From an uncultured cyanobacterium (GTDB lineage Bacteria > Cyanobacteriota > Cyanobacteriia > Cyanobacteriales > Nostocaceae): DNA of 64,000 nt. Positions 14,660 through 62,330 of the stretch are shown here, one piece after another. The DNA is taken from NCBI GenBank assembly GCA_963706595.1, contig OY970166.1, forward strand, positions 4,416,001-4,480,000. Direction: 5' to 3'. The position numbers and the translations under genes are program-made. The notes beneath the pieces were generated by a model, which saw only the letters and a list, made by a program, of their open reading frames with translations, searched no databases and was not told the DNA's origin. The first letter of the stretch is position 1. Every line of letters begins with the position of its first letter.

Positions 14660-14782
14660 TATAGGGCTTCTATTTGATTTCTGAACATCAATACAACTCA
14701 AAATGGCTTTTTCCCACTCCCCACTCCCCACTCCCCACTCCCCACCTACGCAAGCTATCAAAAATTAAAGCGGATTACTATA
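14660..14782. mobile_element. MITE-like dispersed repeat containing an STRR (CCCCACT) array
   Basis: TATA-bounded. Reverse complement closely resembles 27325-27426 and 33477-33592. Internal CCCCACT tandem at 14712-14745. Confidence 0.6.
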
Positions 14783-20774: not shown

Positions 20775-22340
20775 ATGACTGTAGAGGAATTGCTAGAACA
20801 ATACGCAGCAGGAGTCATCAACTTTAGTGGTGTTGACCTTTGCGAAGCTAACCTATGTGGTGTAAAACTTAGTGGGATCAATCTCAGCGAAGCTGACTTG
20901 AGTATAGTTAATTTAAGTGGTGCAAACCTGAGCGGCGCTAACTTGACTAATGTTAAACTGAATGTAGCTCGGCTCAGTGGCGCAAATCTGGAAGGTGTGG
21001 TTCTCAATAATTCTAGTCTGAATGTCGCTAATTTAATTCGAGCCGATTTGAGTCACGCTCAACTGCGAGGAGCATCCCTGGTTCGGGCTGAGTTAATTCG
21101 TGCTGATCTCAGTCGTGCTGACTTGTTTGAGGCTAACTTGAACAGCGCCGATTTACGAGAAGCCACACTGCGCCAAGCTAATCTCCGTTACGCCAACTTA
21201 AGCGAAGCCAATTTAAAAGATAGTTCATTAGTGGGCGCTAACTTGGAAATGGCTAACCTCAACGCCACTAACCTCAGCCGTGCTGACCTCAGTGGTGCGA
21301 ATATGCGAGATGCTGAACTCAAACAAGCTGATCTCAGTCATGCTAACCTCAGTGGTGTAGATTTAAGTGGTACAAATCTCCGTTGGGCTGATTTAAGTGA
21401 GGCTAATCTTTGTTGGGCTAATTTAAGTGGAGCAAAATTGAGTGGGGCTAACTTAATTGGTGCAGACTTGAGTAATGCCAATTTAACCAATGCGAGTTTA
21501 GTTCATACTAATTTAACTCAGGCAACTTTAATTAACACAGAATGGCTGGGTGCAGATTTAACAAGTGCAACTTTAACAGGGGTAAAACTTTATTCTACTT
21601 CCCGTTTTGGGATTAGAACTGAAGGCATAACTTGCGAATGGATTGATCTGAGTCCCAAAGGCGATCGCTCCATCATACAAAGATTCGCCGGCTCAGATGC
21701 ACAAGACTTTTTCAATGAAACCGCACCCACTATCTGCATTATTATTGATGCACCTTTAAAACACGAAGCTAATTTTGCTCTGGCTGGTTCTTATTACCAA
21801 ATTGCTCAGAAATTTCGAGAACTGAAGCAACCTCCCAGTGTAGAAATTAGCAGTCGCCGTACTGTCTTGACTTTCCGCGTAGACAATGACCAAGCCTTAT
21901 TACCTACTGCTTGTCTGGCTATTCTGCCATTTCAAGATGCTATTCATACCCAAAAAAACATTTCCACTATTGCCGAAATGTTAGCCAAAGAAGATATGTT
22001 TCATTTAGGACTAAAAGCACCAGATAAAATCAAGGAATTAAGTTCGCTAATCCAGCAAGCTATTAGTCAGGGTCAGATCATTAAAGAAATGAGAAAATAT
22101 CTGGAATTAGCCGCAAAATCAAAGTTCTGCAAAACACCCACCCAGACAATATTGACCAATTCCAGTGCTAAAACTTTAATAGTATATGATCACCCTAATT
22201 TTGGTAAACGATTTGTTAATTCTGTTGATTCAGATGTGATATTTTCACCTAATATATCTAGCGTAGCTGCTACATTGACACCACCTGCTTTAAATATAAT
22301 TGTGGATTTTATCAACAGCTTTCGTTATATCAGTCAGTAG
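20775..22340 (+). CDS. Pentapeptide repeat protein
   Basis: Long A(N/D)LxX repeat tract over the first ~270 aa. Confidence 0.9.
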   Translation: MTVEELLEQYAAGVINFSGVDLCEANLCGVKLSGINLSEADLSIVNLSGANLSGANLTNVKLNVARLSGANLEGVVLNNSSLNVANLIRADLSHAQLRGASLVRAELIRADLSRADLFEANLNSADLREATLRQANLRYANLSEANLKDSSLVGANLEMANLNATNLSRADLSGANMRDAELKQADLSHANLSGVDLSGTNLRWADLSEANLCWANLSGAKLSGANLIGADLSNANLTNASLVHTNLTQATLINTEWLGADLTSATLTGVKLYSTSRFGIRTEGITCEWIDLSPKGDRSIIQRFAGSDAQDFFNETAPTICIIIDAPLKHEANFALAGSYYQIAQKFRELKQPPSVEISSRRTVLTFRVDNDQALLPTACLAILPFQDAIHTQKNISTIAEMLAKEDMFHLGLKAPDKIKELSSLIQQAISQGQIIKEMRKYLELAAKSKFCKTPTQTILTNSSAKTLIVYDHPNFGKRFVNSVDSDVIFSPNISSVAATLTPPALNIIVDFINSFRYISQ

Positions 22341-31640: not shown

Positions 31641-33299
31641 TTACTGCCATACAAACACTTTGGCTTCGTATGGTCCTAAGTCAGTAATCATGCCATCATC
31701 ATCAGCATCAACATGATAATTGCCTGTCCATTCATGCCATGTACCACCACAGGGAAAATTAGGAATGTGATAGCTACTCAGGAAGTTTTCTGAAAAATTT
31801 GCGACAACAACGACACGAGAACCTTCTTCATTCCAGCGACTGTAAGCTAGTACCTTGGCTTCTAGGTTTTCGTGAATAAAATCAATATTTTCTGTGTAGA
31901 GGGCGTGACTATTTTTACGCAGATGAATCAACCCCTTGTAGTATTCAAATAAGTGATGATTTAAATGATTCCCTAGCAGTGACCATTCGATTTTGGATGA
32001 TTCAGGTTGTTTGGGTCTGTATTCACCAAACTCTTCTCCCATCCAAATTAAAGGTACACCAACAGATGTCATCAGAATAGCTGCTGCCAATTTAGCTCTG
32101 TTAAACCCTTCTTCCTCAAAAATCTGCCGATTAGCCAGTTCAAGCATAGTCCGTTCATGGTCGTGGTTAGTCAGATAATTAACCACATTGGTTGTACCCA
32201 TAAAGCCTTGACGTTTACCATCAATCACATCTTTGAGGCTTTCTAAATCAAAAGTATCGCCACAAATATGCACCGTAATTGTATGACGGAAACTGTCGTG
32301 CCAACAACCATCCATTGGTCCATCTATATTGGTAATACTGGTAGTTTCTGGGATGTGTTCGGCAATGTTATAAAAACTCCTAGTACCAGCAGTAGCTTTG
32401 GCTTCTTGAACAATCCAATGCATGAAATCATAGTTAGCAATTTGTCTGGCTGCATCATAGCGAATACCATCTATATGATATTCTCTAATCCAAAAACGAA
32501 TTGTATCACCAATAAACTTTCGGGCTGGGTAAGTGTCTAAAATTTCGTCGTAATGTTCGTAATTAAACTCAGGACCCCAGTTATTTTCAACGTCACGCGG
32601 AGAATGGTGATACCAATAATCATGATCAATTTGAGTTAATGGACTTGAAGCTTCTGAGTGGTTATATATGCCATCCATAATTACCCGAATGCTTCTACTA
32701 TGACATTGATCAATTAGCTGCTTTAACTCAACGGTAGAACCATAACTAGATTCGGTGGCAAAGAAATAACAAGGATTATAACCCCAGCTATAACTTCCTG
32801 GATATTCTTTGATGGGCATCAACTCAATAGCGTTGATTCCTAATTCACACAAATAATCTAACTTTTCAATGACGTGTTTATATTTTCCTCTGGCGTGTCG
32901 GTCATCTTCACCACCAGAAAAATCACCAACGTGCAATTCATAAATTACTAATTCATGGTCAGCAGGTAGAGGTTTATCATCATGTTTCCAAACGTAAGTA
33001 TCAACAATTCTTTCTCCATCTTTGATGCGGACAATACCGTGATCTTCGCCACTGGCTCCATTAATGTCAGTTGCGTAAGGATCTATCACATCAACCCACT
33101 GTTCTGGTTCAAAAAACCATGAATTTGACTGAACCCTGAATTTATATTCATAGATGCCATCTTCTAGTTCAACATTCGTCCGAAAATAGCCATCTTCGCC
33201 CCTGTCCATGGAGATTTCTTGCCAATTAGAAAAGGAGCCAATTAATGCGACTCCTTTGTTGTAAGGCGCAAATAAATTAAATTCAACGGGTGCTGCCAT
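31641..33299 (-). CDS. GH13 alpha-amylase family protein with N-terminal CBM48-like domain
   Basis: IYELHVGDF, WGYNP, DGIRYDA, AEH, NHD. Confidence 0.88.
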   Translation of the reverse strand: MAAPVEFNLFAPYNKGVALIGSFSNWQEISMDRGEDGYFRTNVELEDGIYEYKFRVQSNSWFFEPEQWVDVIDPYATDINGASGEDHGIVRIKDGERIVDTYVWKHDDKPLPADHELVIYELHVGDFSGGEDDRHARGKYKHVIEKLDYLCELGINAIELMPIKEYPGSYSWGYNPCYFFATESSYGSTVELKQLIDQCHSRSIRVIMDGIYNHSEASSPLTQIDHDYWYHHSPRDVENNWGPEFNYEHYDEILDTYPARKFIGDTIRFWIREYHIDGIRYDAARQIANYDFMHWIVQEAKATAGTRSFYNIAEHIPETTSITNIDGPMDGCWHDSFRHTITVHICGDTFDLESLKDVIDGKRQGFMGTTNVVNYLTNHDHERTMLELANRQIFEEEGFNRAKLAAAILMTSVGVPLIWMGEEFGEYRPKQPESSKIEWSLLGNHLNHHLFEYYKGLIHLRKNSHALYTENIDFIHENLEAKVLAYSRWNEEGSRVVVVANFSENFLSSYHIPNFPCGGTWHEWTGNYHVDADDDGMITDLGPYEAKVFVWQ

Positions 33300-33476
33300 A
33301 AGATGATTTTGATTAAAAAATGTAGATGTGAATATCTTCTAAATTATTAATCAATTTGCAAACCAGTCTTTAGAGATATTTATGTAACTGCTTCATCTAT
33401 CTGAAGTTAGATTCTCTTGTATCAAAATGGGTTGTTGATTGAGTATTAATTGCTGAGATTACTCATGATTAAATTA

Positions 33477-33592
33477 TATAGCAATTCGATTTAATTCCTA
33501 AAATAAGTTGTATAGGCAGGGAACAGAGAACAGCAAAGCAGGAATCCAGGACTACCGAGTTTTTTCACAAAAAATTAAATAGGAGTCCTATA
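33477..33592. mobile_element. MITE-like dispersed repeat
   Basis: TATAGCAATT...TTAAATAGGAGTCCTATA; related to the 14660 and 27325 copies. Confidence 0.5.
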
Positions 33593-33664
33593 GTATAATG
33601 CTCACTATTATTAGGTATAAATATTTATTTGAAAATCATTCATTTTTTATTTTTTCTGCTCAAT

Positions 33665-34042
33665 TTAGTCAATTTTGCCGTTAGTTTCTTGTAAATAACT
33701 TAATAACCAATTTGCGGCTGTGGCTCTACGAGTCTGTCGCGGTCCAAATTCACCAATTTTGTAACCTTTGAAACCCAACTTTTCTTTCGCTATTTGTTTA
33801 TTTTCTTGAGGAATAGAACGAGTTAATTTGACTGTAGCTGGGCGACTATCAATAAAGTCAGGTGGTTCTGGGTACTCATCTCGCCATGCTGATGCAACTT
33901 CGCTATTATCCCATTTGTCAGTTGAAGTGTTATGGCGATAGCCTAAGTAGTGCCAGACTAATTGATTGACTGTGGCATCATCAATTTGCTCATTAAAAAT
34001 TGCCCAGATTGTTTCTGTATTCAGTGGTGGTAAATTAGACAT
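33665..34042 (-). CDS. DUF1823 family protein
   Basis: LVWHYLGYR, RPATVKLTRSIP, TRRATAANWLL. Confidence 0.8.
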   Translation of the reverse strand: MSNLPPLNTETIWAIFNEQIDDATVNQLVWHYLGYRHNTSTDKWDNSEVASAWRDEYPEPPDFIDSRPATVKLTRSIPQENKQIAKEKLGFKGYKIGEFGPRQTRRATAANWLLSYLQETNGKID

Positions 34043-34250
34043 AAGCGATGAAAATTTTACAATTCACGTGTGACTAAATTCGATTCTGTCCAGCAGTTAG
34101 GCTGACTTTGATCAACTCCTACAGATCAGGATGATTTTATCTCTTTCTACACCTACTGAAAAAGTTATCCGCAAAAACGACAAGTGTTTGAGTGAAAAAT
34201 TCGGTTGTGCGTCCACAAAACAGGTAAACTTGAAATCGTAAAGCATTGAC

Positions 34251-34559
34251 TTGTCTATGCAGAATCCTACATCACTGCCCAAGATAGTCCGCGCCCATGT
34301 ATTGATTTCCGGTCGAGTACAAGGGGTAGGCTATCGCTATGCGACTGTCGATACAGCTAGCCAGTTGGGTTTAACCGGTTGGGTGCGGAATCTCCCTGAT
34401 AACAGTGTGGAGGCAGTTTTTGAAGGGGCGCGGGTGGTTGTGGAAGAGATGGTTCGCTGGTGTCACACTGGCCCCCCGGCTGCGGTGGTGAAAGATGTTG
34501 TGCTTGAGTATCAAAAACCTGAAGGTTTGCGGGGGTTTGAAGTTAGGCGCTTTGAGTAG
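34251..34559 (+). CDS. acyP: Acylphosphatase
   Basis: GRVQGVGYR, GWVRN. Confidence 0.92.
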   Translation: MSMQNPTSLPKIVRAHVLISGRVQGVGYRYATVDTASQLGLTGWVRNLPDNSVEAVFEGARVVVEEMVRWCHTGPPAAVVKDVVLEYQKPEGLRGFEVRRFE

Positions 34560-34572
34560 CCCTTTTCTAAAC

Positions 34573-34668
34573 ATTATGGTAGTTGAGGCTTTGCGAAACC
34601 CAACAAATGCTGTGGATGTTACTGGGAAAATGTTGGGTTTCACTGCGTTCTACCCAACCTACCATAAT
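34573..34668. repeat. REP/REPIN-like inverted-repeat element
   Basis: ATTATGGTAGTTG...GAAACCCAACA ... TGTTGGGTTTC...CAACCTACCATAAT inverted arms. Confidence 0.65.
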
Positions 34669-34689
34669 TTTTCTACAACATTAAGTAGG

Positions 34690-34845
34690 TTGGTTGAGTC
34701 GGACAAGTCTTCGGTTTTGCAACCTACCAAGCTATTCGACTCAGTTTTATATTCGGAGGTCGTCGCCTTCCTCGCTGGTTCAGGTCTGGACTCCCGATTG
34801 TACGCCCGATAAATTCCCATTTATCAGCTCTGACCTTTGGGAGTA
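34690..34845 (-). ncRNA. Putative structured DGR spacer (3' flank of the TR RNA)
   Basis: Hairpins 34808-34825 (GATAAAT/ATTTATC) and 34695-34743 (TGAGTCG/CGACTCA arms) directly downstream of the TR. Confidence 0.5.
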
Positions 34846-34973
34846 CTCACGCCACAGCCACAGCCACCACGCGAAAACCAACATTGTTGTTACGATTCGC
34901 GCGCGCGTTATGATTGCGATTGGCAGAACGGCAATTCCTAGCGTTGTTGATCCAACTACCGCCACGCAGCAGC
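34846..34973 (-). repeat. DGR template repeat (TR)
   Basis: 128-bp ungapped copy of 35163-35290. Reads LLRGGSWINNARNCRSANRNHNARANRNNNVGFRVVAVAVA* with 10 AAY codons; 13 of 14 mismatches are at TR adenines. Confidence 0.95.
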
Positions 34974-35026
34974 TAAAATCGACCTGCCCCATCCTCAAAT
35001 TTTCAACTGAATGAGAAATTTGATTA

Positions 35027-35055
35027 AATGTAGTGTATAATAGATTTGATATCAA
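35027..35055 (-). promoter_or_regulatory. Candidate sigma70-type promoter for the TR RNA
   Basis: TTGATA-N17-TACATT on the minus strand, ~55 bp upstream of the TR. The region is AT-rich, so a chance match is possible. Confidence 0.3.
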
Positions 35056-35081
35056 GACACCAGATTTGATAAAAAATTTTT

Positions 35082-35095
35082 CCGCCTGACGGCGG
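35082..35095 (-). promoter_or_regulatory. GC hairpin downstream of VR (candidate DGR target-recognition hairpin)
   Basis: CCGCC-GTCA-GGCGG, following a pyrimidine-rich TTGCCCT repeat tract 3' of the VR. Confidence 0.5.
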
Positions 35096-35162
35096 GGGAA
35101 AGAAGGGAAAAGAATAAGAAGTGCAGAGGGCAAAAGGGCAAGAGTGTAAAGGGCAAGGAATC

Positions 35163-35290
35163 CTCACGCCACAGCCACAGCCACCACGCGAAAACCAACA
35201 GTGTTGTCACGAGTCGCGCGCGCGAGAGGATCGCGATTGGCAGAACGGCAAGCACTAGCGAGGAGGATCCAACTACCGCCACGCAGCAGC
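35163..35290 (-). repeat. DGR variable repeat (VR) at the 3' end of the target gene
   Basis: Encodes LLRGGSWILLASACRSANRDPLARATRDNTVGFRVVAVAVA*; 10 residues differ from the TR translation. Confidence 0.95.
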
Positions 35291-38235
35291 CGATAATCAT
35301 TATCATTCCCATTTAGCCAAGCACTTCCGTCTGTGGGCGCTGCCTCGTAATTTTCGTTATATATATCTTGGCACCATTCCCATATATTACCATGCATATC
35401 GTACAAACCGAAAGAGTTTGGCAAAAAATTTCCGACATCTGTTGTTTGTCTACGACTTTCACCTTTTGGGGCTGAGGCGTAGGGAAAGTTACCGTCGTAG
35501 TTAACTAAATCTGTGGTTATGGTTTCACCAAAAGAGAAGGGTGTGGTTGTTCCCGCACGACAAGCATATTCCCATTCAGCCTCGCTGGGTAGCCTGTATT
35601 TGCGTCCTGTACTTTGACTCAATTTTTCACAAAATTCTACAGCATCATCCCAAGTCACTTGTTCTACAGGTCGTTTATCACCTTTGAAATTAGCAGGATT
35701 TGTCCCCATAATTGCTTGATACTGCGCCTGGGTAACTGGATATTTCCCCATGAAGAAGGCAGGAACATTAACCAGATGCTGGGGACTTTCACTATCGAAT
35801 CTTTCTGCTTCCTCTGGTGGTGAACCCATCAAAAAAGAACCGCCAGAAATCGCCACCATTTGCAGAGTTACGCCATTACCTACATTTTCTACAAACTGGT
35901 CTGCTGTGCGGTTGTCTCTGGCAACAATATTTCCCTGTGCATTGACTGCTACGATTTTAAATTCAAAAAAAGTCTGTAAAAAAAGAGAATCATAATTAGG
36001 TATATTATAATTCCGACTAGGATTTTGGGTAATTTGATGTGTTACCACTGATGTCAGTAAACCCACACCTCCCCAACTAAGCCAAGTTAAAAATTTCCTG
36101 CGGCTGATTATCGGGGAAATAGAATTATTCGATTTAACAAAACTCGGCTGGTGAATTGATGGCTGAGTCACTATTCCCAACTTTCGTAATTTTTTCTGTC
36201 TTTGGAGTGAGCGACTAAAATCATCTGATACTTTCATGGTAAGTACAGATTGTTTTGTCATAAAGCCGAGAAAAAGATAATCCCGTAATAGACTATCTTG
36301 AGAAGCTGGTTTAGATAATAAAGAACGGATGGAATTAGCTAATTTGGTTAAAAAACTAGGAGCTTGTGTTGCTATTTCTAACTGTAATTTGCTGAACGCG
36401 GAACCTAACCCCCTAGCCCCCTTCCCTACCAGGGAAGGGGGAACATTCAAAGCCTCTCCCCTTGTAGGGTAGAGTTTTGGAGAGGGGTTTTCCTGATCCT
36501 GTGGAAAGTCAGAACCTTGAACAGCCGTATTTAATAAATCTTCTAGCGCATTACGAATAATCTGCTGTTGTTCTGGGGTGAGTGTTGTCATCAGGTAAAC
36601 ACGCAACCAGTCTGGCATATAACCAGAACGCAGCCACGGTAAACGAGCCAAATCAGTCAAGGAACACACTTCTAATAGAGATTTTCCTGACTCTGTGGTG
36701 AGAACGTTACCCAGATAAATAGTAATATTCCAATGCAATTCCGGAAAAACCGCACAAGCACTCAACCAATAAAAACTATCCTGTCCAAGATATTTCTCCA
36801 GCGACTCCAGCATGAGATTAATCTGCTCAGATGGGGGAGGATTCCGTTCTATCCAGAGATAAGGTTGTGTCCGTAATGAATCTGGTAGAGGTATTGGCGT
36901 TTTTTCCGCCAGAAAATAAGTTGCTACACCCTGGCGTAGTCTTTGACTTAGCACCTGTAAGCCTTTAAGTGTTGCGGGTAAAATAATAAACTGTTGTGCA
37001 AGTTCTAATTCCTGATATCTCCAGTTTTCTACAGGAGTGGGTGTTAGAAATGCCCGGTTTTCCCAGTCTGTCAATTGATTTACCCAAGGTTCTAATTCAC
37101 CACTAATAGAGCTAAAAAAGTTATCTGTATCGGAGATAATAATTAGACAATGCTGACTGTATTTTGATGTAATTTCTCTGAGTCTAAGTGGGAAGCTTCC
37201 TGGCTGATGGGGAAAACACATTCTTGGGTCATCATCGAAGAAATAGATAGTAGTAAATACGCCTTCATCTTGTAAGCGCTCAATTATTTCTTCTACAAAT
37301 TTAGCTTGATGATCTCGATAGCTGGTGCGGTTAACCAGAAATAGATACTCAGGGAGAATTTGATAAGTACGATAAACTGGAGTTAGCCATCCGCCTCGGC
37401 TGAGAGTTGCATTAATAGTTTTATTGACATCAAGTTCATGAGATGGAATCTGAATTCTATATCTTAAACTCTGGGCAATTTGGCGCAAGACAATATGAGA
37501 AACTAATTTATCTTCACAGCCAGCAATAGAAATTTTGTTTAATTCGGGTTGTTTTGTTGTACTATAACGTTGCAAAAACAGATTAGCACGCCATTGCGAT
37601 CTCAAAATGAGAAATGCAACTGAGATAGTTAGATAAAGTAGTAAAATTTGCCAATTTAAAGGTAAAGTTTCCGGAGGATCTGTTTTTGTAATTTCTCCTC
37701 TGGGAGGCACTTGTGGAAGTGGTCCCGTTGCTGGTGGGGGTAATACTGGGGTTGTTGTTTCTCCTGTTGGTCGTGGTTGTCTGAAAGACCTCTTCTCTAT
37801 GGGGGATGGGAATAAGATAATATATACAAAACATAGAAGAAAAATAGTAATTAAAGTTAGCAGTCTGAGTTGCTGCATCCCATAGGAGACAGAGGGTATT
37901 TTTTCTGGTTCGACTGGATGTGGTAGAGTTTCTAGGGTTGCTTTTTCTGTTAAGAAATTAGTTCGGCTAGATAACTGAACCCATCTGTCAAAACGTTGTG
38001 GAAATTCTTCCTGCTCAATGGGTGAACTACACAAAATTGGCCCTAACAAATTTCTCAGATTCTCTGGACTATCCAATGTTGTACCCCGATCAATCAACAT
38101 CAAGATTAAATTTTGGGCTGCAATATACTGAGATATGCCAATTTTGTAACCTGCTGCTCTTAGTTCATCGATGAACTCGATCAAATCATCAGGATTTAGC
38201 CAGTTTAGATTGTTTTTGTCTGTTCCTGTATCCAC
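35164..38235 (-). CDS. Membrane vWA-like / FGE-sulfatase (CLec-fold) protein; DGR target
   Basis: N-terminal helical region, two TMs, ELDV..TI.AT...PEYLFLVNR (vWA-like, degenerate MIDAS), third TM, then FGE domain (FLMGS, RLPSEAEWEYACRAGT, FGLYDMHGNIWEW, RGGSW, GFRV). Confidence 0.85.
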   Translation of the reverse strand: MDTGTDKNNLNWLNPDDLIEFIDELRAAGYKIGISQYIAAQNLILMLIDRGTTLDSPENLRNLLGPILCSSPIEQEEFPQRFDRWVQLSSRTNFLTEKATLETLPHPVEPEKIPSVSYGMQQLRLLTLITIFLLCFVYIILFPSPIEKRSFRQPRPTGETTTPVLPPPATGPLPQVPPRGEITKTDPPETLPLNWQILLLYLTISVAFLILRSQWRANLFLQRYSTTKQPELNKISIAGCEDKLVSHIVLRQIAQSLRYRIQIPSHELDVNKTINATLSRGGWLTPVYRTYQILPEYLFLVNRTSYRDHQAKFVEEIIERLQDEGVFTTIYFFDDDPRMCFPHQPGSFPLRLREITSKYSQHCLIIISDTDNFFSSISGELEPWVNQLTDWENRAFLTPTPVENWRYQELELAQQFIILPATLKGLQVLSQRLRQGVATYFLAEKTPIPLPDSLRTQPYLWIERNPPPSEQINLMLESLEKYLGQDSFYWLSACAVFPELHWNITIYLGNVLTTESGKSLLEVCSLTDLARLPWLRSGYMPDWLRVYLMTTLTPEQQQIIRNALEDLLNTAVQGSDFPQDQENPSPKLYPTRGEALNVPPSLVGKGARGLGSAFSKLQLEIATQAPSFLTKLANSIRSLLSKPASQDSLLRDYLFLGFMTKQSVLTMKVSDDFSRSLQRQKKLRKLGIVTQPSIHQPSFVKSNNSISPIISRRKFLTWLSWGGVGLLTSVVTHQITQNPSRNYNIPNYDSLFLQTFFEFKIVAVNAQGNIVARDNRTADQFVENVGNGVTLQMVAISGGSFLMGSPPEEAERFDSESPQHLVNVPAFFMGKYPVTQAQYQAIMGTNPANFKGDKRPVEQVTWDDAVEFCEKLSQSTGRKYRLPSEAEWEYACRAGTTTPFSFGETITTDLVNYDGNFPYASAPKGESRRQTTDVGNFLPNSFGLYDMHGNIWEWCQDIYNENYEAAPTDGSAWLNGNDNDYRLLRGGSWILLASACRSANRDPLARATRDNTVGFRVVAVAVA
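36397..36510. repeat. GC-rich palindromic dispersed repeat inserted in frame in the DGR target gene
   Basis: CCCCCTTCCCT-ACC-AGGGAAGGGGG hairpin plus CCTCTCCCCTTGTAGGGTAGAG; translates as NPSPKLYPTRGEALNVPPSLVGKGARGLG. Confidence 0.6.
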
Positions 38236-39209
38236 TGTTCTACAATTTTTTTAGCTTTTTCTTGATCATCAGCAGTTTTAATTAAGCTACTCAAAGTACC
38301 AAAAACTACTTCGGGTTGCAGTAAAGGATTTTCTGATGGACTATGAAACTTTCGTAAAATTATTAGCCAACCCAATAATTCAGCCGTTGCGGGTTTTTTC
38401 CTCAAACCACTTTGGGGGGAACGTAACCTGTAAAATAAGTTAAGGGCTGCTTGCAAAAATGGACTACTACTACCAGCATTAATATTGAAACGATTAGCGA
38501 CAATCTCAGCCAGTCGCTCAATTTTGGGAAAAGGAACGTTGTAATAAATGCAACGCCTGAGAAAAGCATCAGGTAAATCTTTTTCAGAATTGCTGGTAAT
38601 AATTATAATTGGTTGTAATTCTGGTTCGGCGGCAATTTTTTCATTTCCTAACTCTGGAATCCGAAAATACATTAACTCCAATTCGTTGAGTAAATCATTG
38701 GCGAAATCACGAGGTGCTTTATCAATTTCATCAATTAAAACTACTGAACGTGTTTTTTGAGAATGTCGAGTTTCTAATGACAATAAATCTTTAACTTCAT
38801 CTGGATTTTTAGTGTGTAAAATTGCTGTTCCTAAAGCTTGAAAAGTGATGTAATCTAAAAATTTAGTTGAATCAACCCCACTTTGCACATCTTGGAATCG
38901 CTTTAAGGCATCATAAGTATAGAATAAGTCACGAGCAACGCTAGTGGACTTAGTTTCAAACTTTAACGGCTGTTCCAGTCCAAGTTCCCAAGCCAGACTG
39001 TAAGCTAGTTGAGTTTTACCGGTTCCTGGTTCGCCGGTCACAAGTAGGGGTTGTCCTAATAACAGGGCTACATTACACGCATCTTTCAAGCCTGAATCTG
39101 CAATATAATTCTTTGGCTGGAGTAATTGAGAACGGGGAGAAGTTGGCACTTTTACTGGTAAATCCAATTGTTTGCGAGTTCCATCACCTGAGTAAAAGGG
39201 GTAATTCAT
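38205..39209 (-). CDS. MoxR-family AAA+ ATPase
   Basis: Walker A GEPGTGKT, Walker B VVLIDEIDKA, FANDLL, ITSNSEKDLPDAFLRRC. Confidence 0.92.
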   Translation of the reverse strand: MNYPFYSGDGTRKQLDLPVKVPTSPRSQLLQPKNYIADSGLKDACNVALLLGQPLLVTGEPGTGKTQLAYSLAWELGLEQPLKFETKSTSVARDLFYTYDALKRFQDVQSGVDSTKFLDYITFQALGTAILHTKNPDEVKDLLSLETRHSQKTRSVVLIDEIDKAPRDFANDLLNELELMYFRIPELGNEKIAAEPELQPIIIITSNSEKDLPDAFLRRCIYYNVPFPKIERLAEIVANRFNINAGSSSPFLQAALNLFYRLRSPQSGLRKKPATAELLGWLIILRKFHSPSENPLLQPEVVFGTLSSLIKTADDQEKAKKIVEQWIQEQTKTI

Positions 39210-40319
39210 GCTGATTCATCCTGTAGGAGGGGTTTGACTAATTCAACTAATTTTTCAGCTAAATCATGCATGGGAATCGTATCAGAGTATGTTTGTTCTT
39301 CCCAAGATTCAAACATCTCTCCAACTCTTTGAATTAATGGTTCAATCATGGCTTCTCCCACTAGCTTTCTAGTATCTTCACTACGTACCCAATTTTCCAC
39401 TTCGCCCTGATTTATTCCTTCTAATTCTGGCAGAACGATTACAGAGAGAGGTTGAAAATGATTAAAATTTGAGTTAGCTAATTTTTCGAGATACTGGCGA
39501 ACTCTTTTATTTATCTGCTGACATCGATATTGTTTAGAAAAAACGCGTGAAAAACTGAATATCCACTTTATCCAGAGTTTTTTGGCAGATTTGTTGCGTT
39601 TGTTTTTATATTTAATCGATATGTAAATAATTAATTTTTGACTGATTACTGTTTCATGTAAATGATTACAAAATTCCAAGAGTTTATTCAAAATTTCAAA
39701 TTCTTGTTTTTGCAAATCTTCTGTAAGTAAAGTGGTATAAAGTATAATTGGTTCTGGATAATTGTTTAAATAATCGGTGATTTTTTCCAAAGAGTAGAAA
39801 CTATTTCCCAAAACACCCTTTGTTAGACTTTTATATAACTCATTTCGTAGTTGATGCAAATTTTTTAATTTTGAAGGACATTCCAGTTGATATGTTGTCT
39901 TACTAATTGATTGGTGTGAAAGTATCTCTAGCCATTTAGGGAGAGCAAAGGTTTGTATGCGTTCTAAAAAGTTGTGATGACATTGGGATTCATCTCCATG
40001 AACAATGCAAACTAAATGACCAGGAGAATCTTGCTTGAGAAATTTCAGAAATGTTTCACCTAGTTGTGATTCCTGTTCTTTCCGGTTGGTTAAATAGGGT
40101 AGGAGTGGTGGAAGTTCTTTTTTAAATGGAGTCGGGGGTTTTTGGAAACTGCTTGACCCACTTTGATGAAAGGTAACATTTTTGGACGTGTTGGAAATTT
40201 AGAGCCTGTCCATTATCCAATTGACCAATACTCTGCCCAAAATTTTGACCTACTTCCTGCTGAATTTCATTCTTTGACTGGGGTGGTTGAGGTTCTCCCT
40301 GGTTTGGTTCTTGAGTCAT
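39206..40319 (-). pseudogene. Inactive-STAND (iSTAND)-like protein with N-terminal Q/N/G motif, split by a +1 frameshift
   Basis: The 65-aa ORF (40122-40319) and 217-aa ORF (39206-39859) join into one 370-aa ORF if one A is removed from the A5 run at 40179-40183. The restored segment reads LLPYLTNRKEQE...LVCIVHGDESQCHHNFLERI. The stop overlaps the MoxR start (ATGA). Confidence 0.7.
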
Positions 40320-40362
40320 TTTTTCGCAAACTTATGGCATCACTTCGTATTAGACTAATTGA

Positions 40363-40809
40363 CTAAAGTGTGACATTTCCATCTACACTACCGATGCTAC
40401 CAATGTTTTTAGCTTGGCTATTCTGCATCTGTCCAATCATTTGTCCTTCAACTGTGCCGGCTGTTTGCTGAATTTGAACGCCACCTTTATCAACTCCATC
40501 GTTATCTTGAAGAATTTTGGCAATGATATCTGCAAGTCCTTGATCTTTTTTAAAGAGTGTTTCTAACTCTTCTTGAAGTGCGGCTTTCCAAACTTCACTA
40601 TCTGGTTTTTCTGCTAACTTTGTGGCGGCGATGTTGGCTGCTGCTTCTGCTTCGACTGGAGGATATAATTTTTTCCAAATTGCGGTGGCTTTATCCCAAG
40701 TGTCTTGACCAAGCTTGGTCGCTGCTGCACTTAATGCCGGCTCTCCAACTTTTTTTAACAGAAAGGGCAGACATGGAGCTAGAAAAGTTGTCAAAATTGC
40801 TACATCCAT
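40363..40809 (-). CDS. Bell-like helical-domain protein with C-terminal putative amyloid-signalling motif
   Basis: Hydrophobic N-terminal helix (FLAPCLPFLLK), G.D.W.KA.AIW.KL pattern, ~105-aa helical domain, then tail IQQTAGTVEGQMIGQMQNSQAKNIGSIGSVDGNVTL. Confidence 0.65.
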   Translation of the reverse strand: MDVAILTTFLAPCLPFLLKKVGEPALSAAATKLGQDTWDKATAIWKKLYPPVEAEAAANIAATKLAEKPDSEVWKAALQEELETLFKKDQGLADIIAKILQDNDGVDKGGVQIQQTAGTVEGQMIGQMQNSQAKNIGSIGSVDGNVTL

Positions 40810-41130
40810 TTATTTAAATTCTGATATTTTGCAAGTAACTTGATGTAACTCATAAATACCACAGCTTCTTATGGGAAAACAAGCCCAAATCCTGCATTTT
40901 AGGGATTGACGACTTGATGGGGATATTTAGCCTCTGGTAGAGTTTATAACTTTTTTGTAAATTATCTTGACATTTTGTAACAAAGTTGTTAAGATTGTTT
41001 ACATAAGTTAGCAAATACCTCAAGCACCTACGTAAATTACTATTAAAAAAGTTGCCTTGGAATTGAGTTAGAAATTCGCTTATTTGTATTGTTGTATCTA
41101 AATCGTCATTCTTACTTCTCCTAATCAGAG

Positions 41131-48872: not shown

Positions 48873-49628
48873 GTGGTGAAAAAATTAGTTTTAAATTTAT
48901 TTGCTAGTATAATATTTTATACATCTATTCCTCTGCCCTATATCAAGGGGCTAGACTTCCAAAAAGTGGCGTATTTTGCGCCGCTAGTGGGGCTGATGAT
49001 TGGCGGCATTTTAGGGCTATGTGATGGCGGAATGAATTATTTGGGGATACCAGTGTTAACTCGTAGCGCTTTGGTAGTGAGTATTTGGATTGCCATCACT
49101 GGAGGATTACACTTAGATGGGGTAATGGATACTGCTGATGGTTTGGCGGTGGGGAACCCTGAAAAACGCTTAGAGGTGATGGCGGATAGTGCTACAGGTG
49201 CTTTTGGTGCAATGGCGGCGATCGCCTTAATATTACTTAAAACTACAGCTTTAATCGAGATTGGTGATCACCGTTGGCTGGTGCTGATGGCGGCTTGTGG
49301 ATGGGGACGCTGGGGACAACAAGTAGCGATCGCCTGCTATCCTTATTTAAAACCCACTGGCAAAGGTGCATTCCACAAAGCCGCTATTCGTTCATATCAG
49401 GATTTATTACCAGGACTGTTTTTGCTTTTTAGTCTCAGTGGTTTTTCGGTAGTAATAGAGAAAGAATATCTGTTTTTAGCACTCAGCATGATCGGGACTG
49501 GAAGTGCGATCGCCACTTTGACCGGATTATGGTTTAATCACAAATTAGGCGGACACACAGGAGACACCTACGGCGCAGTAGTTGAATGGACAGAAGCCCT
49601 ATTCCTCTGTGTCCTCACCATATTTTAA
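48873..49628 (+). CDS. cobS: Adenosylcobinamide-GDP ribazoletransferase
   Basis: [26 protein letters not shown]. Confidence 0.92.
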
Positions 49629-49687
49629 TTACGAATTACGAATTACGAATTACGAATTACGAATTACGAATTACGAATTACGAATTA
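49627..49687. repeat. Heptamer tandem repeat (AATTACG x8 plus partial)
   Basis: Read directly; lies between convergent stop codons. Shorter copies near 12232 and 24130. Confidence 0.9.
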
Positions 49688-54543: not shown

Positions 54544-54924
54544 TGAGATGGGGTAGTGATGATGAGGAAAACTTCTTCCCTACTCCCTACTCCCCAGAAG
54601 AAGCAGGGGGTACTGGTGCAGGGTGCAAGGGGGAGTTAGAAATAGAAATTACTTTAAACTTGTTTACTTAACAACCGTTCCTCTTCTCCCCCACTCCCTA
54701 CTCCCCACTCCCTAATTTGTACTTTTATAAAGTATAATTAAGGAAAAGATAAAAACATCTGGAAAGTAATCTAGCCTCAAACGGCCAAGAAGACTACCAG
54801 GAAACAATTTAAATTCCTAGTTTTTGATACAAAAGTACACAAAATCCCGACATACAATTAATTTGTACGTGGGGACATAAAAAACGCAAGTATATAATTC
54901 CCAGTTGAAGAGGTATGTAAAGGC

Positions 54925-61616: not shown

Positions 61617-62330
61617 TTGAGTAGGTTTTATCTAGCGGCTGCATCACTCATACTTAATTTGATTGTTGACAAAAATATCATAATGAGCGAGATGGAGCAG
61701 TATTATAGAGTTTTAGAAATAGAACCTGGAGCAACACTTGAGGAAGTCAATCAAGCTTATAAAGACTTGGTTTTTATTTGGCATCCTGATCGCATTCCTC
61801 AAGAAAATCACCGCTTACAGAAGAAAGCCCAAGACAAGCTCAAAGCCATTAATGAAGCTCGTGATAAATTGCGCTCTTTACATGGTAAGCAGAAAAACAT
61901 TTATCATTCTCCAGCATCTCAAGCAAAAACACCACCTGAAAGTACCTACAAACCACCTAAGACTAACCCTGATTTAAGTGGAAAAGATTTTAGTGGCTCG
62001 AACTTAAGCAACAAAGATTTATCTGGCAGAAATTTGAGTTACGCTGATTTGAGTGGGGCTGATTTGAGTGATACTTTTATGCACAAAGTTATTCTCCGAG
62101 GGGCAAATTTATCCTCGGCAAATTTGTTTCGAGCTAACTTACTTTTAGCCGATATGAGAGAAGCTAACTTGCGCTCTACTAACTTGATTGGTGCGGATTT
62201 GAGTGGAGCCGACTTGCGCGGAGCCGACTTAACAGGAGCGCGGATTCGTTCAGGCGATCGCCTACTGGTAAAATTGATTGGTGCTAACTTAGCTGGGGCA
62301 ATTATGCCTGATGGTGTTATCCATAGTTAA
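61617..62330 (+). CDS. DnaJ-domain plus pentapeptide repeat protein (start probably ~61683)
   Basis: YY.VLE...WHPD...INEA J-domain; ANL repeats. Confidence 0.88.
   Translation: MSRFYLAAASLILNLIVDKNIIMSEMEQYYRVLEIEPGATLEEVNQAYKDLVFIWHPDRIPQENHRLQKKAQDKLKAINEARDKLRSLHGKQKNIYHSPASQAKTPPESTYKPPKTNPDLSGKDFSGSNLSNKDLSGRNLSYADLSGADLSDTFMHKVILRGANLSSANLFRANLLLADMREANLRSTNLIGADLSGADLRGADLTGARIRSGDRLLVKLIGANLAGAIMPDGVIHS

Follow-up and report, generated by a model that had tools for sequence, protein, structure and literature searches.

An RT-less DGR cassette in a Nostocaceae genome, likely served episodically in trans and probably dormant in its present copy

The TR/VR pair in a Nostocaceae genome is a confirmed, real DGR footprint, and the element that carries it is not a complete DGR. 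We found it in a stretch of 64,000 nucleotides from an uncultured cyanobacterium (assembly GCA_963706595.1, contig OY970166.1, positions 4,416,001 to 4,480,000), which is called the window here. By sequence comparison the cassette is a member of a conserved RT-less lineage, and the reading that we consider likely is a non-autonomous DGR cassette to which a complete DGR episodically supplies RT-Avd in trans, the window copy being probably dormant.

The template repeat (TR, 34846..34973) and the variable repeat (VR, 35163..35290), both on the minus strand, align without gaps over 128 bp with 14 mismatches, as an earlier sequence-only reading had reported and pairwise re-alignment confirmed. On the coding (-) strand, 13 of the 14 mismatches fall on TR adenines, which make up 25 of the 128 TR bases (hypergeometric p=3.1e-10), so the claimed bias to TR adenines was borne out; 13/25 (52%) of the TR adenines are changed in the VR, and the single non-A mismatch is G>T (AGG>AGT, R>S). 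The codon changes given in that reading (AAC>CTC three times, AAT>GCT, AAT>GAT, CAT>CCT, AAT>ACT twice and AAC>GAC, with AGG>AGT) match exactly, and its details of ten altered amino acids and an untouched RGGSW, CRSA and GFRV scaffold are all correct. The TR has 24 adenines over 14 variable codons, which gives about 1e14 possible peptides. A separate repeat search also recovered the pair (family D3, 134 nt, 88%). Just 3' of the stop codon the VR copy reads TGAGGATTCC and the TR copy reads TGAGTACTCC. The view that the copies part here as IMH and IMH* holds, and the pattern of VR-side GGA(C/T) versus TR-side G(T/C)(A/G)C recurs in relatives; the IMH (35157..35166, minus strand) consists of the VR stop codon and the next bases. 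DGR origin and TR/VR assignment stand as first read, but a complete element does not, and what remains is a cassette of a conserved lineage without RT and avd, probably dormant here. Elsewhere in the window, coding sequence at 20848-21486 and 61969-62232 contains 15-nt periodic repeats, presumably as in pentapeptide-repeat genes, and 7-nt short tandem repeats at 49627-49682, 14706-14744 and 54572-54727 are of a kind that we take to be typical of heterocystous cyanobacteria.

The VR is the 3' end of the ORF of a 1023-aa target gene (35164..38235, minus strand). Its product has an N-terminal part with two hydrophobic segments and ends in an FGE-sulfatase/CLec domain at aa 792-1018 (PF03781, E 2.6e-56), for which a single-sequence AlphaFold model was unusable (pLDDT 35). 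No vWA domain was matched by Pfam in the target protein at E 10, and the atlas matches were unnamed; gene order and the membrane segments suggest a vWA-type component in the N-terminal part. Upstream of the target gene, on the same strand, lie a gene for a 334-aa MoxR-type AAA+ ATPase (38205..39209; AAA/AAA_5 above the cut-off, with the MoxR label taken from context), which is 83% identical to its orthologue in a complete DGR locus of genome G023, and an iSTAND gene (39206..40319; PF19995, E 9.9e-18 on a 330-codon open frame), which is split by a frameshift at an A run near 40180 (window 40172-40193), real or a sequencing error. Another FGE gene (G000:C1:1870953) has a frameshift in its VR region, and since the single-contig genome is 94% complete, indel errors are possible for both. 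A 148-aa ORF at the island head (40363..40809, minus strand) matched no family above the cut-off. The arrangement is like that of the iSTAND-MoxR-vWA ternary systems (Kaur et al. 2020, PMC7159879), which combine iSTAND and MoxR with a large third protein that is membrane-anchored and has FGS at its end, the commonest effector of that iSTAND subsystem (22%) in the text available to us; the window differs in that vWA is undetected by Pfam, the iSTAND gene is frameshifted and the system is diversified by a private RT-less cassette.

The whole island of about 6.35 kb (34570..40920) lies between an acylphosphatase gene and a 264-aa ORF. It is absent from the orthologous site in four of the five sister genomes searched, and in the fifth the site is split over contigs. 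In G023 the orthologous island is a complete element of target, avd, RT and TR. The 3' end of the window locus is 90-99% like compact cassettes that sit on other targets in sisters versus 64-81% like the G023 orthologue, which suggests that a module was attached to this target; independent deletion in place from the orthologous complete DGR was rejected on these values. The same iSTAND-MoxR island occurs at L189 (G010:C31) without a TR, and its target shares the first 739 residues while the C-terminal domain is a different one, which suggests that the sensor end is swappable.

In the 3' direction from the VR stop, the order is IMH, pyrimidine tract, 5-bp GC hairpin, promoter-like site, hairpin, G-rich leader, TR, IMH* and 3' spacer, and the VR-to-TR distance is 190 bp. 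The pyrimidine tract and GC hairpin (35082..35158, minus strand; hairpin 35082-35095 with a 5-bp stem and 4-nt loop) form a candidate target-recognition hairpin and/or terminator. A scan found one such hairpin at this single site versus 1.4 by chance, and relatives have a hairpin in the same position. The window hairpin misfits the phage GRNA consensus: its loop is non-GRNA and it stands about 70 nt from the VR, whereas the phage DGR hairpins described in PMC3240598 have 7-10 bp stems and GRNA loops at 4-34 bp. The predicted sigma70-type promoter of the TR RNA (35027..35055, minus strand) has two hexamers with a 17-nt spacer and 9/12 matches; the promoter scan by itself is weak (3 found versus 1.0 expected), and both hexamers are identical in 12 of the 21 cassettes of the lineage. 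When the promoter segment was aligned to the pre-avd and pre-TR regions of 23 complete DGRs, the scores were at or near shuffle maxima, so a deletion junction was not traced for it.

From this promoter an RNA of about 330 nt is predicted, comprising leader, TR and 3' spacer, all on the minus strand. The 5' leader (34974..35021) contains a hairpin at 34997-35021 and a G-rich segment (34983-34991) base-paired to the 3' spacer. IMH* at the TR end (34840..34849) pairs with 34788-34795 as a predicted template:primer duplex. The 3' spacer (Sp, 34690..34845, about 155 nt) has helices that covary across complete and RT-less elements. The covariation alignment comprised 22 TR regions, 11 complete and 11 RT-less or RT-deleted; 97.7% of its cells pair and double changes occur in 23 of the 44 pairs, with 0/500 shuffles as high and 2-9 pairs in slid controls, for a structure derived from the same 22 rows. 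The window copy breaks 3 of the 44 pairs, and one of these breaks is private and lies in Sp. The order of the helices in the TR flanks equals that of BPP-1 (10.1101/2023.10.23.563531, as far as its available text goes): Avd-binding stem, template:primer duplex, stop duplex with stem-loop and A-run, and RT-binding stem. By this analogy the flanks would fold into the stop duplex, the template:primer duplex and protein-binding stems for RT-Avd, with the structure taken from covariation and the binding from BPP-1. An Rfam scan of window positions 33000-37000 gave no match at E 1. RNA contigs from two studies cover the spacer and TR of a sister cassette, and such contigs cannot show strand, start or level. 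In two RNA runs (X3 and X4) the contig depth over spacer and TR exceeded that over the gene, a depth that cannot rank genes and may sum two identical copies, and that is therefore given no weight here; X3 had no coverage of the VR, and X4 gave a target-gene contig with 2 differences.

No RT or avd was found in the window between or beside the repeats. A genome-wide search gave 5 RT matches, only one of which has the DGR motif (LGNLTSQ, YVDD); the other four are 24-26% identical to the DGR RT, three with QGxxxSP and one with neither motif. The sole DGR-type RT is located 174 kb from the cassette, behind the only avd of the genome (PF22296, intact). The best PDB match of the family RT is the BPP-1 DGR (PDB 8UB7, E 6e-46). 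The RT has 304 aa versus 352 in 8/8 aligned relatives; it diverges after residue 294, so that the last ~58 residues are missing, and the missing segment aligns with residues 275-328 of BPP-1 bRT. Up to residue 294 the frame is free of stops, and the catalytic motifs are preserved. No TR was found at this avd-RT locus, and the genome holds only two TR-like copies, both in RT-less cassettes. Since the only DGR RT of the genome is truncated, the window cassette is probably dormant here. No sequencing runs of the window strain were found, the best run holding 0.20 of the words, and with neither an intact DGR RT in the genome nor reads of the strain, present activity is unsupported.

Several other loci of the same genome were observed. 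The avd-RT locus belongs to a region (G000:C1:4623926-4626962) with a TIR-like/FGE target, intact avd, RT cut after residue 294 and no TR; the orthologous RT is broken at other points in G006 (128 aa) and G005 (103 aa). The second RT-less cassette (G000:C1:3652091-3654621) lies behind a 128-aa gene and a caspase-like/FGE gene, which is the ancestral position of the lineage. It is 81% identical to the cassette in the window, with 14 A and 4 non-A mismatches and private changes in its TR. Other FGE genes were considered as remote targets of the window TR and rejected, with 6 of 7 differing at 44-49 non-A positions (gaps included). A kinase-FGE gene (C1:3872355) differs from the window TR at 12 non-A positions and looks like a lapsed target. 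Two FGE/CLec paralogues (G000:C1:4508646-4510545 and 645826-648858) have VR-like ends and IMH-like tails with no matching TR in the genome.

Scanning GTDB genomes for a 3'-spacer pattern gave at least 119 loci, of which the 80 with full flanks were classified and 39 left out. These 80 comprise 25 complete, 19 compact RT-less, 13 collapsed, 7 with partial RT and 16 other loci, at least 2 of the last being further compact cassettes missed by the search expression. The spacer of the window is common to 13 of the 19 compact RT-less loci of this sample. Outside the genus, 15 of 15 cassettes examined lie behind the same adaptor and caspase-CLec genes. In a spacer tree of 55 rows, whose bootstrap is not fully settled, all 19 rows of the window-spacer type fall into one clade (100/99) with two complete DGRs, and six other compact cassettes are placed elsewhere. 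Matches to the promoter and leader were obtained in 17 of 201 family genomes and 9 of 65 genera, scoring only 4 candidates per genome; most lie behind a caspase-CLec gene, and 2 of the 17 are partial. Because several genomes appear in more than one of these samples under other handles, the counts cannot be summed. Other forms were also seen. In the collapsed cassettes (for example L013, L015, L019, L055 and L056) the target gene runs directly into the IMH* and 3' spacer of the TR, as expected from VR-TR recombination, which would lock the current variant. One locus (L060, G013:C38:16474-16792) is a solo TR RNA gene that has the 5' leader of the lineage but no target next to it, and its genome also has a complete DGR. 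In one complete DGR (L058, G002:C1:3866967-3867373) an insertion of about 320 bp splits the TR.

The VRs of this lineage carry signs of rewriting from their own TRs. The window TR and the TR of G002 differ in one codon, AGG in G002 and CAT in the window, and the window VR has CCT there, that is, the TR-private bases plus one A change. At non-A positions the window VR departs from its own TR once and from any of 20 other TRs at least 3 times. Among 21 cassettes, the own TR is the best match for the VR in 11 and tied in 3; in the other 7 the VR fits the TR of another cassette better, a sign of decay. In G213, where no RT was found, the VR differs from its own TR by 11 A and 0 non-A changes; in G242 it differs by 13 A and 1 non-A from its own TR and by 20 non-A from the window TR, and both TRs are 82% identical to that of the window. 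Two VRs of G002 agree with the compact TR at every non-A site but differ from the TR of the intact complete DGR at 34 other positions. The cassette of G099, a genome with two full-length RT matches, is clean (14 A, 1 non-A). Polymorphism at TR adenines, which the sequence-only reading had proposed as a check, was seen in the cassette of a sister species rather than in the window strain (L048, TR 97.7% identical): metagenome contigs from two studies carry an orthologous VR that differs from the G002 VR at 14 sites each in total, 14/14 and 14/14 at TR adenines. The same contigs extend over 350 and 117 bp of the gene upstream of the VR with no other difference, and the spacer and TR contigs are unchanged except for one 1-nt gap.

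These signs bear on the view that the cassette is a dead remnant, in which a complete DGR lost avd and RT by deletion, the mismatches in the VR are older than that event and the locus has been inert since. Several observations favour it: the truncation of the only DGR-type RT here, the private stem-breaking change in Sp, the 13 collapsed loci with VR joined to the 3' flank of the TR, and the published reading of one such locus (PMC7517822, in its available text). Broken DGRs are also common, with 17 of 68 RT-positive family genomes having only a partial or interrupted RT. Further results weigh against constant service in trans: carriers of the cassette are not enriched for an intact RT, which is present in 4 of 17 carriers versus 47 of 184 other family genomes (Fisher p=1.0), and the remaining carriers have a broken RT only (7/17) or no match (6/17, including the near-complete G020). 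Broken-only DGR RTs are enriched in carriers (7/17 versus 10/184, Fisher p=1e-4, with genomes that are not independent). In the locus scan, a full-length RT is present in the genomes of 5 of 19 compact loci and of only 1 of 13 of the window lineage, many of these genomes being drafts or bins that may lack plasmids. Non-A mismatches have a median of 3 in compact (n=19) versus 0.5 in complete elements (n=24; p=0.02), and G191 has an intact RT yet a decayed cassette. Against a dead remnant, the RT-less junction and promoter recur across several genera, yet the VRs follow TR changes that arose after the split; the TR adenines and RNA helices are kept, and wild populations show A-only polymorphism. 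We regard this explanation as improbable overall: it is largely refuted for the lineage and would be fair for the window copy today if no RT returns. The RT counts and the decay suit episodic service and frequent dormancy more than constant service, with some room left for rivals.

Equally improbable in our judgement is that the VR was a remote target of a complete DGR with the same TR, since lost, and that the TR next to it is a passive copy, matched to it through recombination or gene conversion. There is good precedent for remote targets (PMC5758913, PMC4143802, PMC10907252, as far as their available text goes), two complete DGRs fall within the Sp clade of the lineage, and recombination could carry diversified VR alleles over from RT-positive strains. 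That the repeats recombine with each other is evident from the collapsed loci and from L142, whose TR contains VR-like bases, so that sequence can flow between repeats by other routes. But this explanation needs one lost match for each diverged TR (the window, the second G000 cassette, G001, G020, G213, G242 and L142), in G002 the TR of neither complete DGR matches the two VRs, and a passive copy is not expected to retain promoter boxes, covarying helices and adenines.

That the cassette is active now, through the 304-aa RT and the intact avd or through one of the four other RTs, is very improbable, since, despite the intact avd (PF22296), the stop-free residues 1-294 with their catalytic motifs and the single non-A mismatch of the window pair, the RT lacks its C-terminal region past the FLGF motif, by its position probably the thumb, which in bRT touches the template:primer duplex and has Sp RNA in a ring around it (10.1101/2023.10.23.563531, available text), and the four other RTs are only 24-26% identical, none with the DGR motif and three with QGxxxSP.

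In the likely reading of a cassette served in trans, RT-Avd encoded elsewhere would copy the TR with errors at adenines, and the cDNA would replace the VR at the IMH. The footprint in the sequence shows that ten residues at the tip of the CLec domain have been rewritten, and in an iSTAND-MoxR conflict system this domain may act as the variable sensor. The helper of the lineage was most likely the avd-RT locus at G000:C1:4623926-4625197; as this locus is now without its TR and the C-terminus of its RT, the VR seen today would be frozen in the state that earlier rounds left. In the available text of the sources, avd, TR and brt supplied in trans work experimentally in BPP-1 (PMC5758913), and loss of the RT in an isolate with TR and VR intact has a precedent in Trichodesmium (PMC4143802).

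DGRs on CLec conflict proteins of cyanobacteria are known from the available text of PMC7517822 and PMC10907252. The cyanobacterial DGRs of clade 5 (Roux et al. 2021, PMC8144416; Vallota-Eastman et al. 2020, PMC7517822) and clade 5E (PMC10907252) are like the window locus in their FGE/CLec target, C-terminal VR, AAY-rich TR and TR-RNA flanks, whereas the window has no avd or RT in the locus and its TR lies 190 bp past the VR with its own promoter-like site. The BPP-1 DGR (mtd-VR, avd, TR, Sp, brt) shares the adenine-specific changes, IMH/IMH* and RNA element order, and the 52% of changed adenines in the window equals the in vitro rate of bRT, which changes 51.6% of adenines per pass and errs at G at 1.6% (10.1101/2020.04.29.068544, available text); unlike BPP-1, the window element is cellular and RT-less. 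Off-locus action of an RT, as proposed here, is described for loci of Trichodesmium (PMC4143802), Treponema (PMC4891356) and Thiohalocapsa (DGR 4/5, PMC10907252), and a nanoarchaeal DGR missing its RT has been reported (PMC4372165), in the parts of these papers that were available. Remote targets use the TR of the master element and have no TR of their own, with a VR matching the TR of a complete DGR elsewhere, whereas the window cassette has its own adjacent TR; where genomes were checked (G002), many non-A sites of the compact TR show no relation to the TRs of the complete elements. One published case is all3226 of Nostoc sp. PCC 7120, a Nostocales genome as in the window, described in one sentence of the available text of PMC7517822 as "remnant TR-VR homology" with no nearby RT. 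In the window lineage, its conservation, the concerted change of TR and VR and the polymorphism seen in the wild speak against a mere remnant. A conserved functional RT-less DGR lineage was not described in the available text of PMC3610870, PMC6596454, PMC3521204, PMC8144416, PMC4891356, PMC3240598 and PMC8867640, with subscription papers and supplements (for example the PMC7517822 tables) outside the scope of this search.

For the window alone the result is modest, a probably dormant copy. For the Nostocales, we tentatively suggest the possibility of an old, inherited lineage of non-autonomous template cassettes, each with promoter, TR RNA and IMH, which would be a portable hypermutation module that was copied onto new CLec sensors (caspase, kinase, iSTAND-MoxR) and runs only in the presence of a mobile complete DGR. 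If so, the gain and breakage of RTs together with VR-TR collapse would be an on/off and lock-in cycle for the diversification of bacterial immune sensors, and a large share of DGR templates would be missed by RT-anchored surveys. The searches in PMC8144416 accept a repeat within 1 kb of an RT, according to its available text, and such searches would miss the window cassette; since the RNA-anchored sample of 80 loci has 19 compact versus 25 complete elements, the diversified repertoire of cyanobacteria is likely undercounted. Should a single RT-Avd be able to use a number of unrelated TR RNAs in trans, every target could evolve a template of its own. This natural system makes it testable how DGR activity switches off once a useful variant exists, and how far RT-Avd tolerates foreign RNA scaffolds, which bears on multiplexed DGR engineering.
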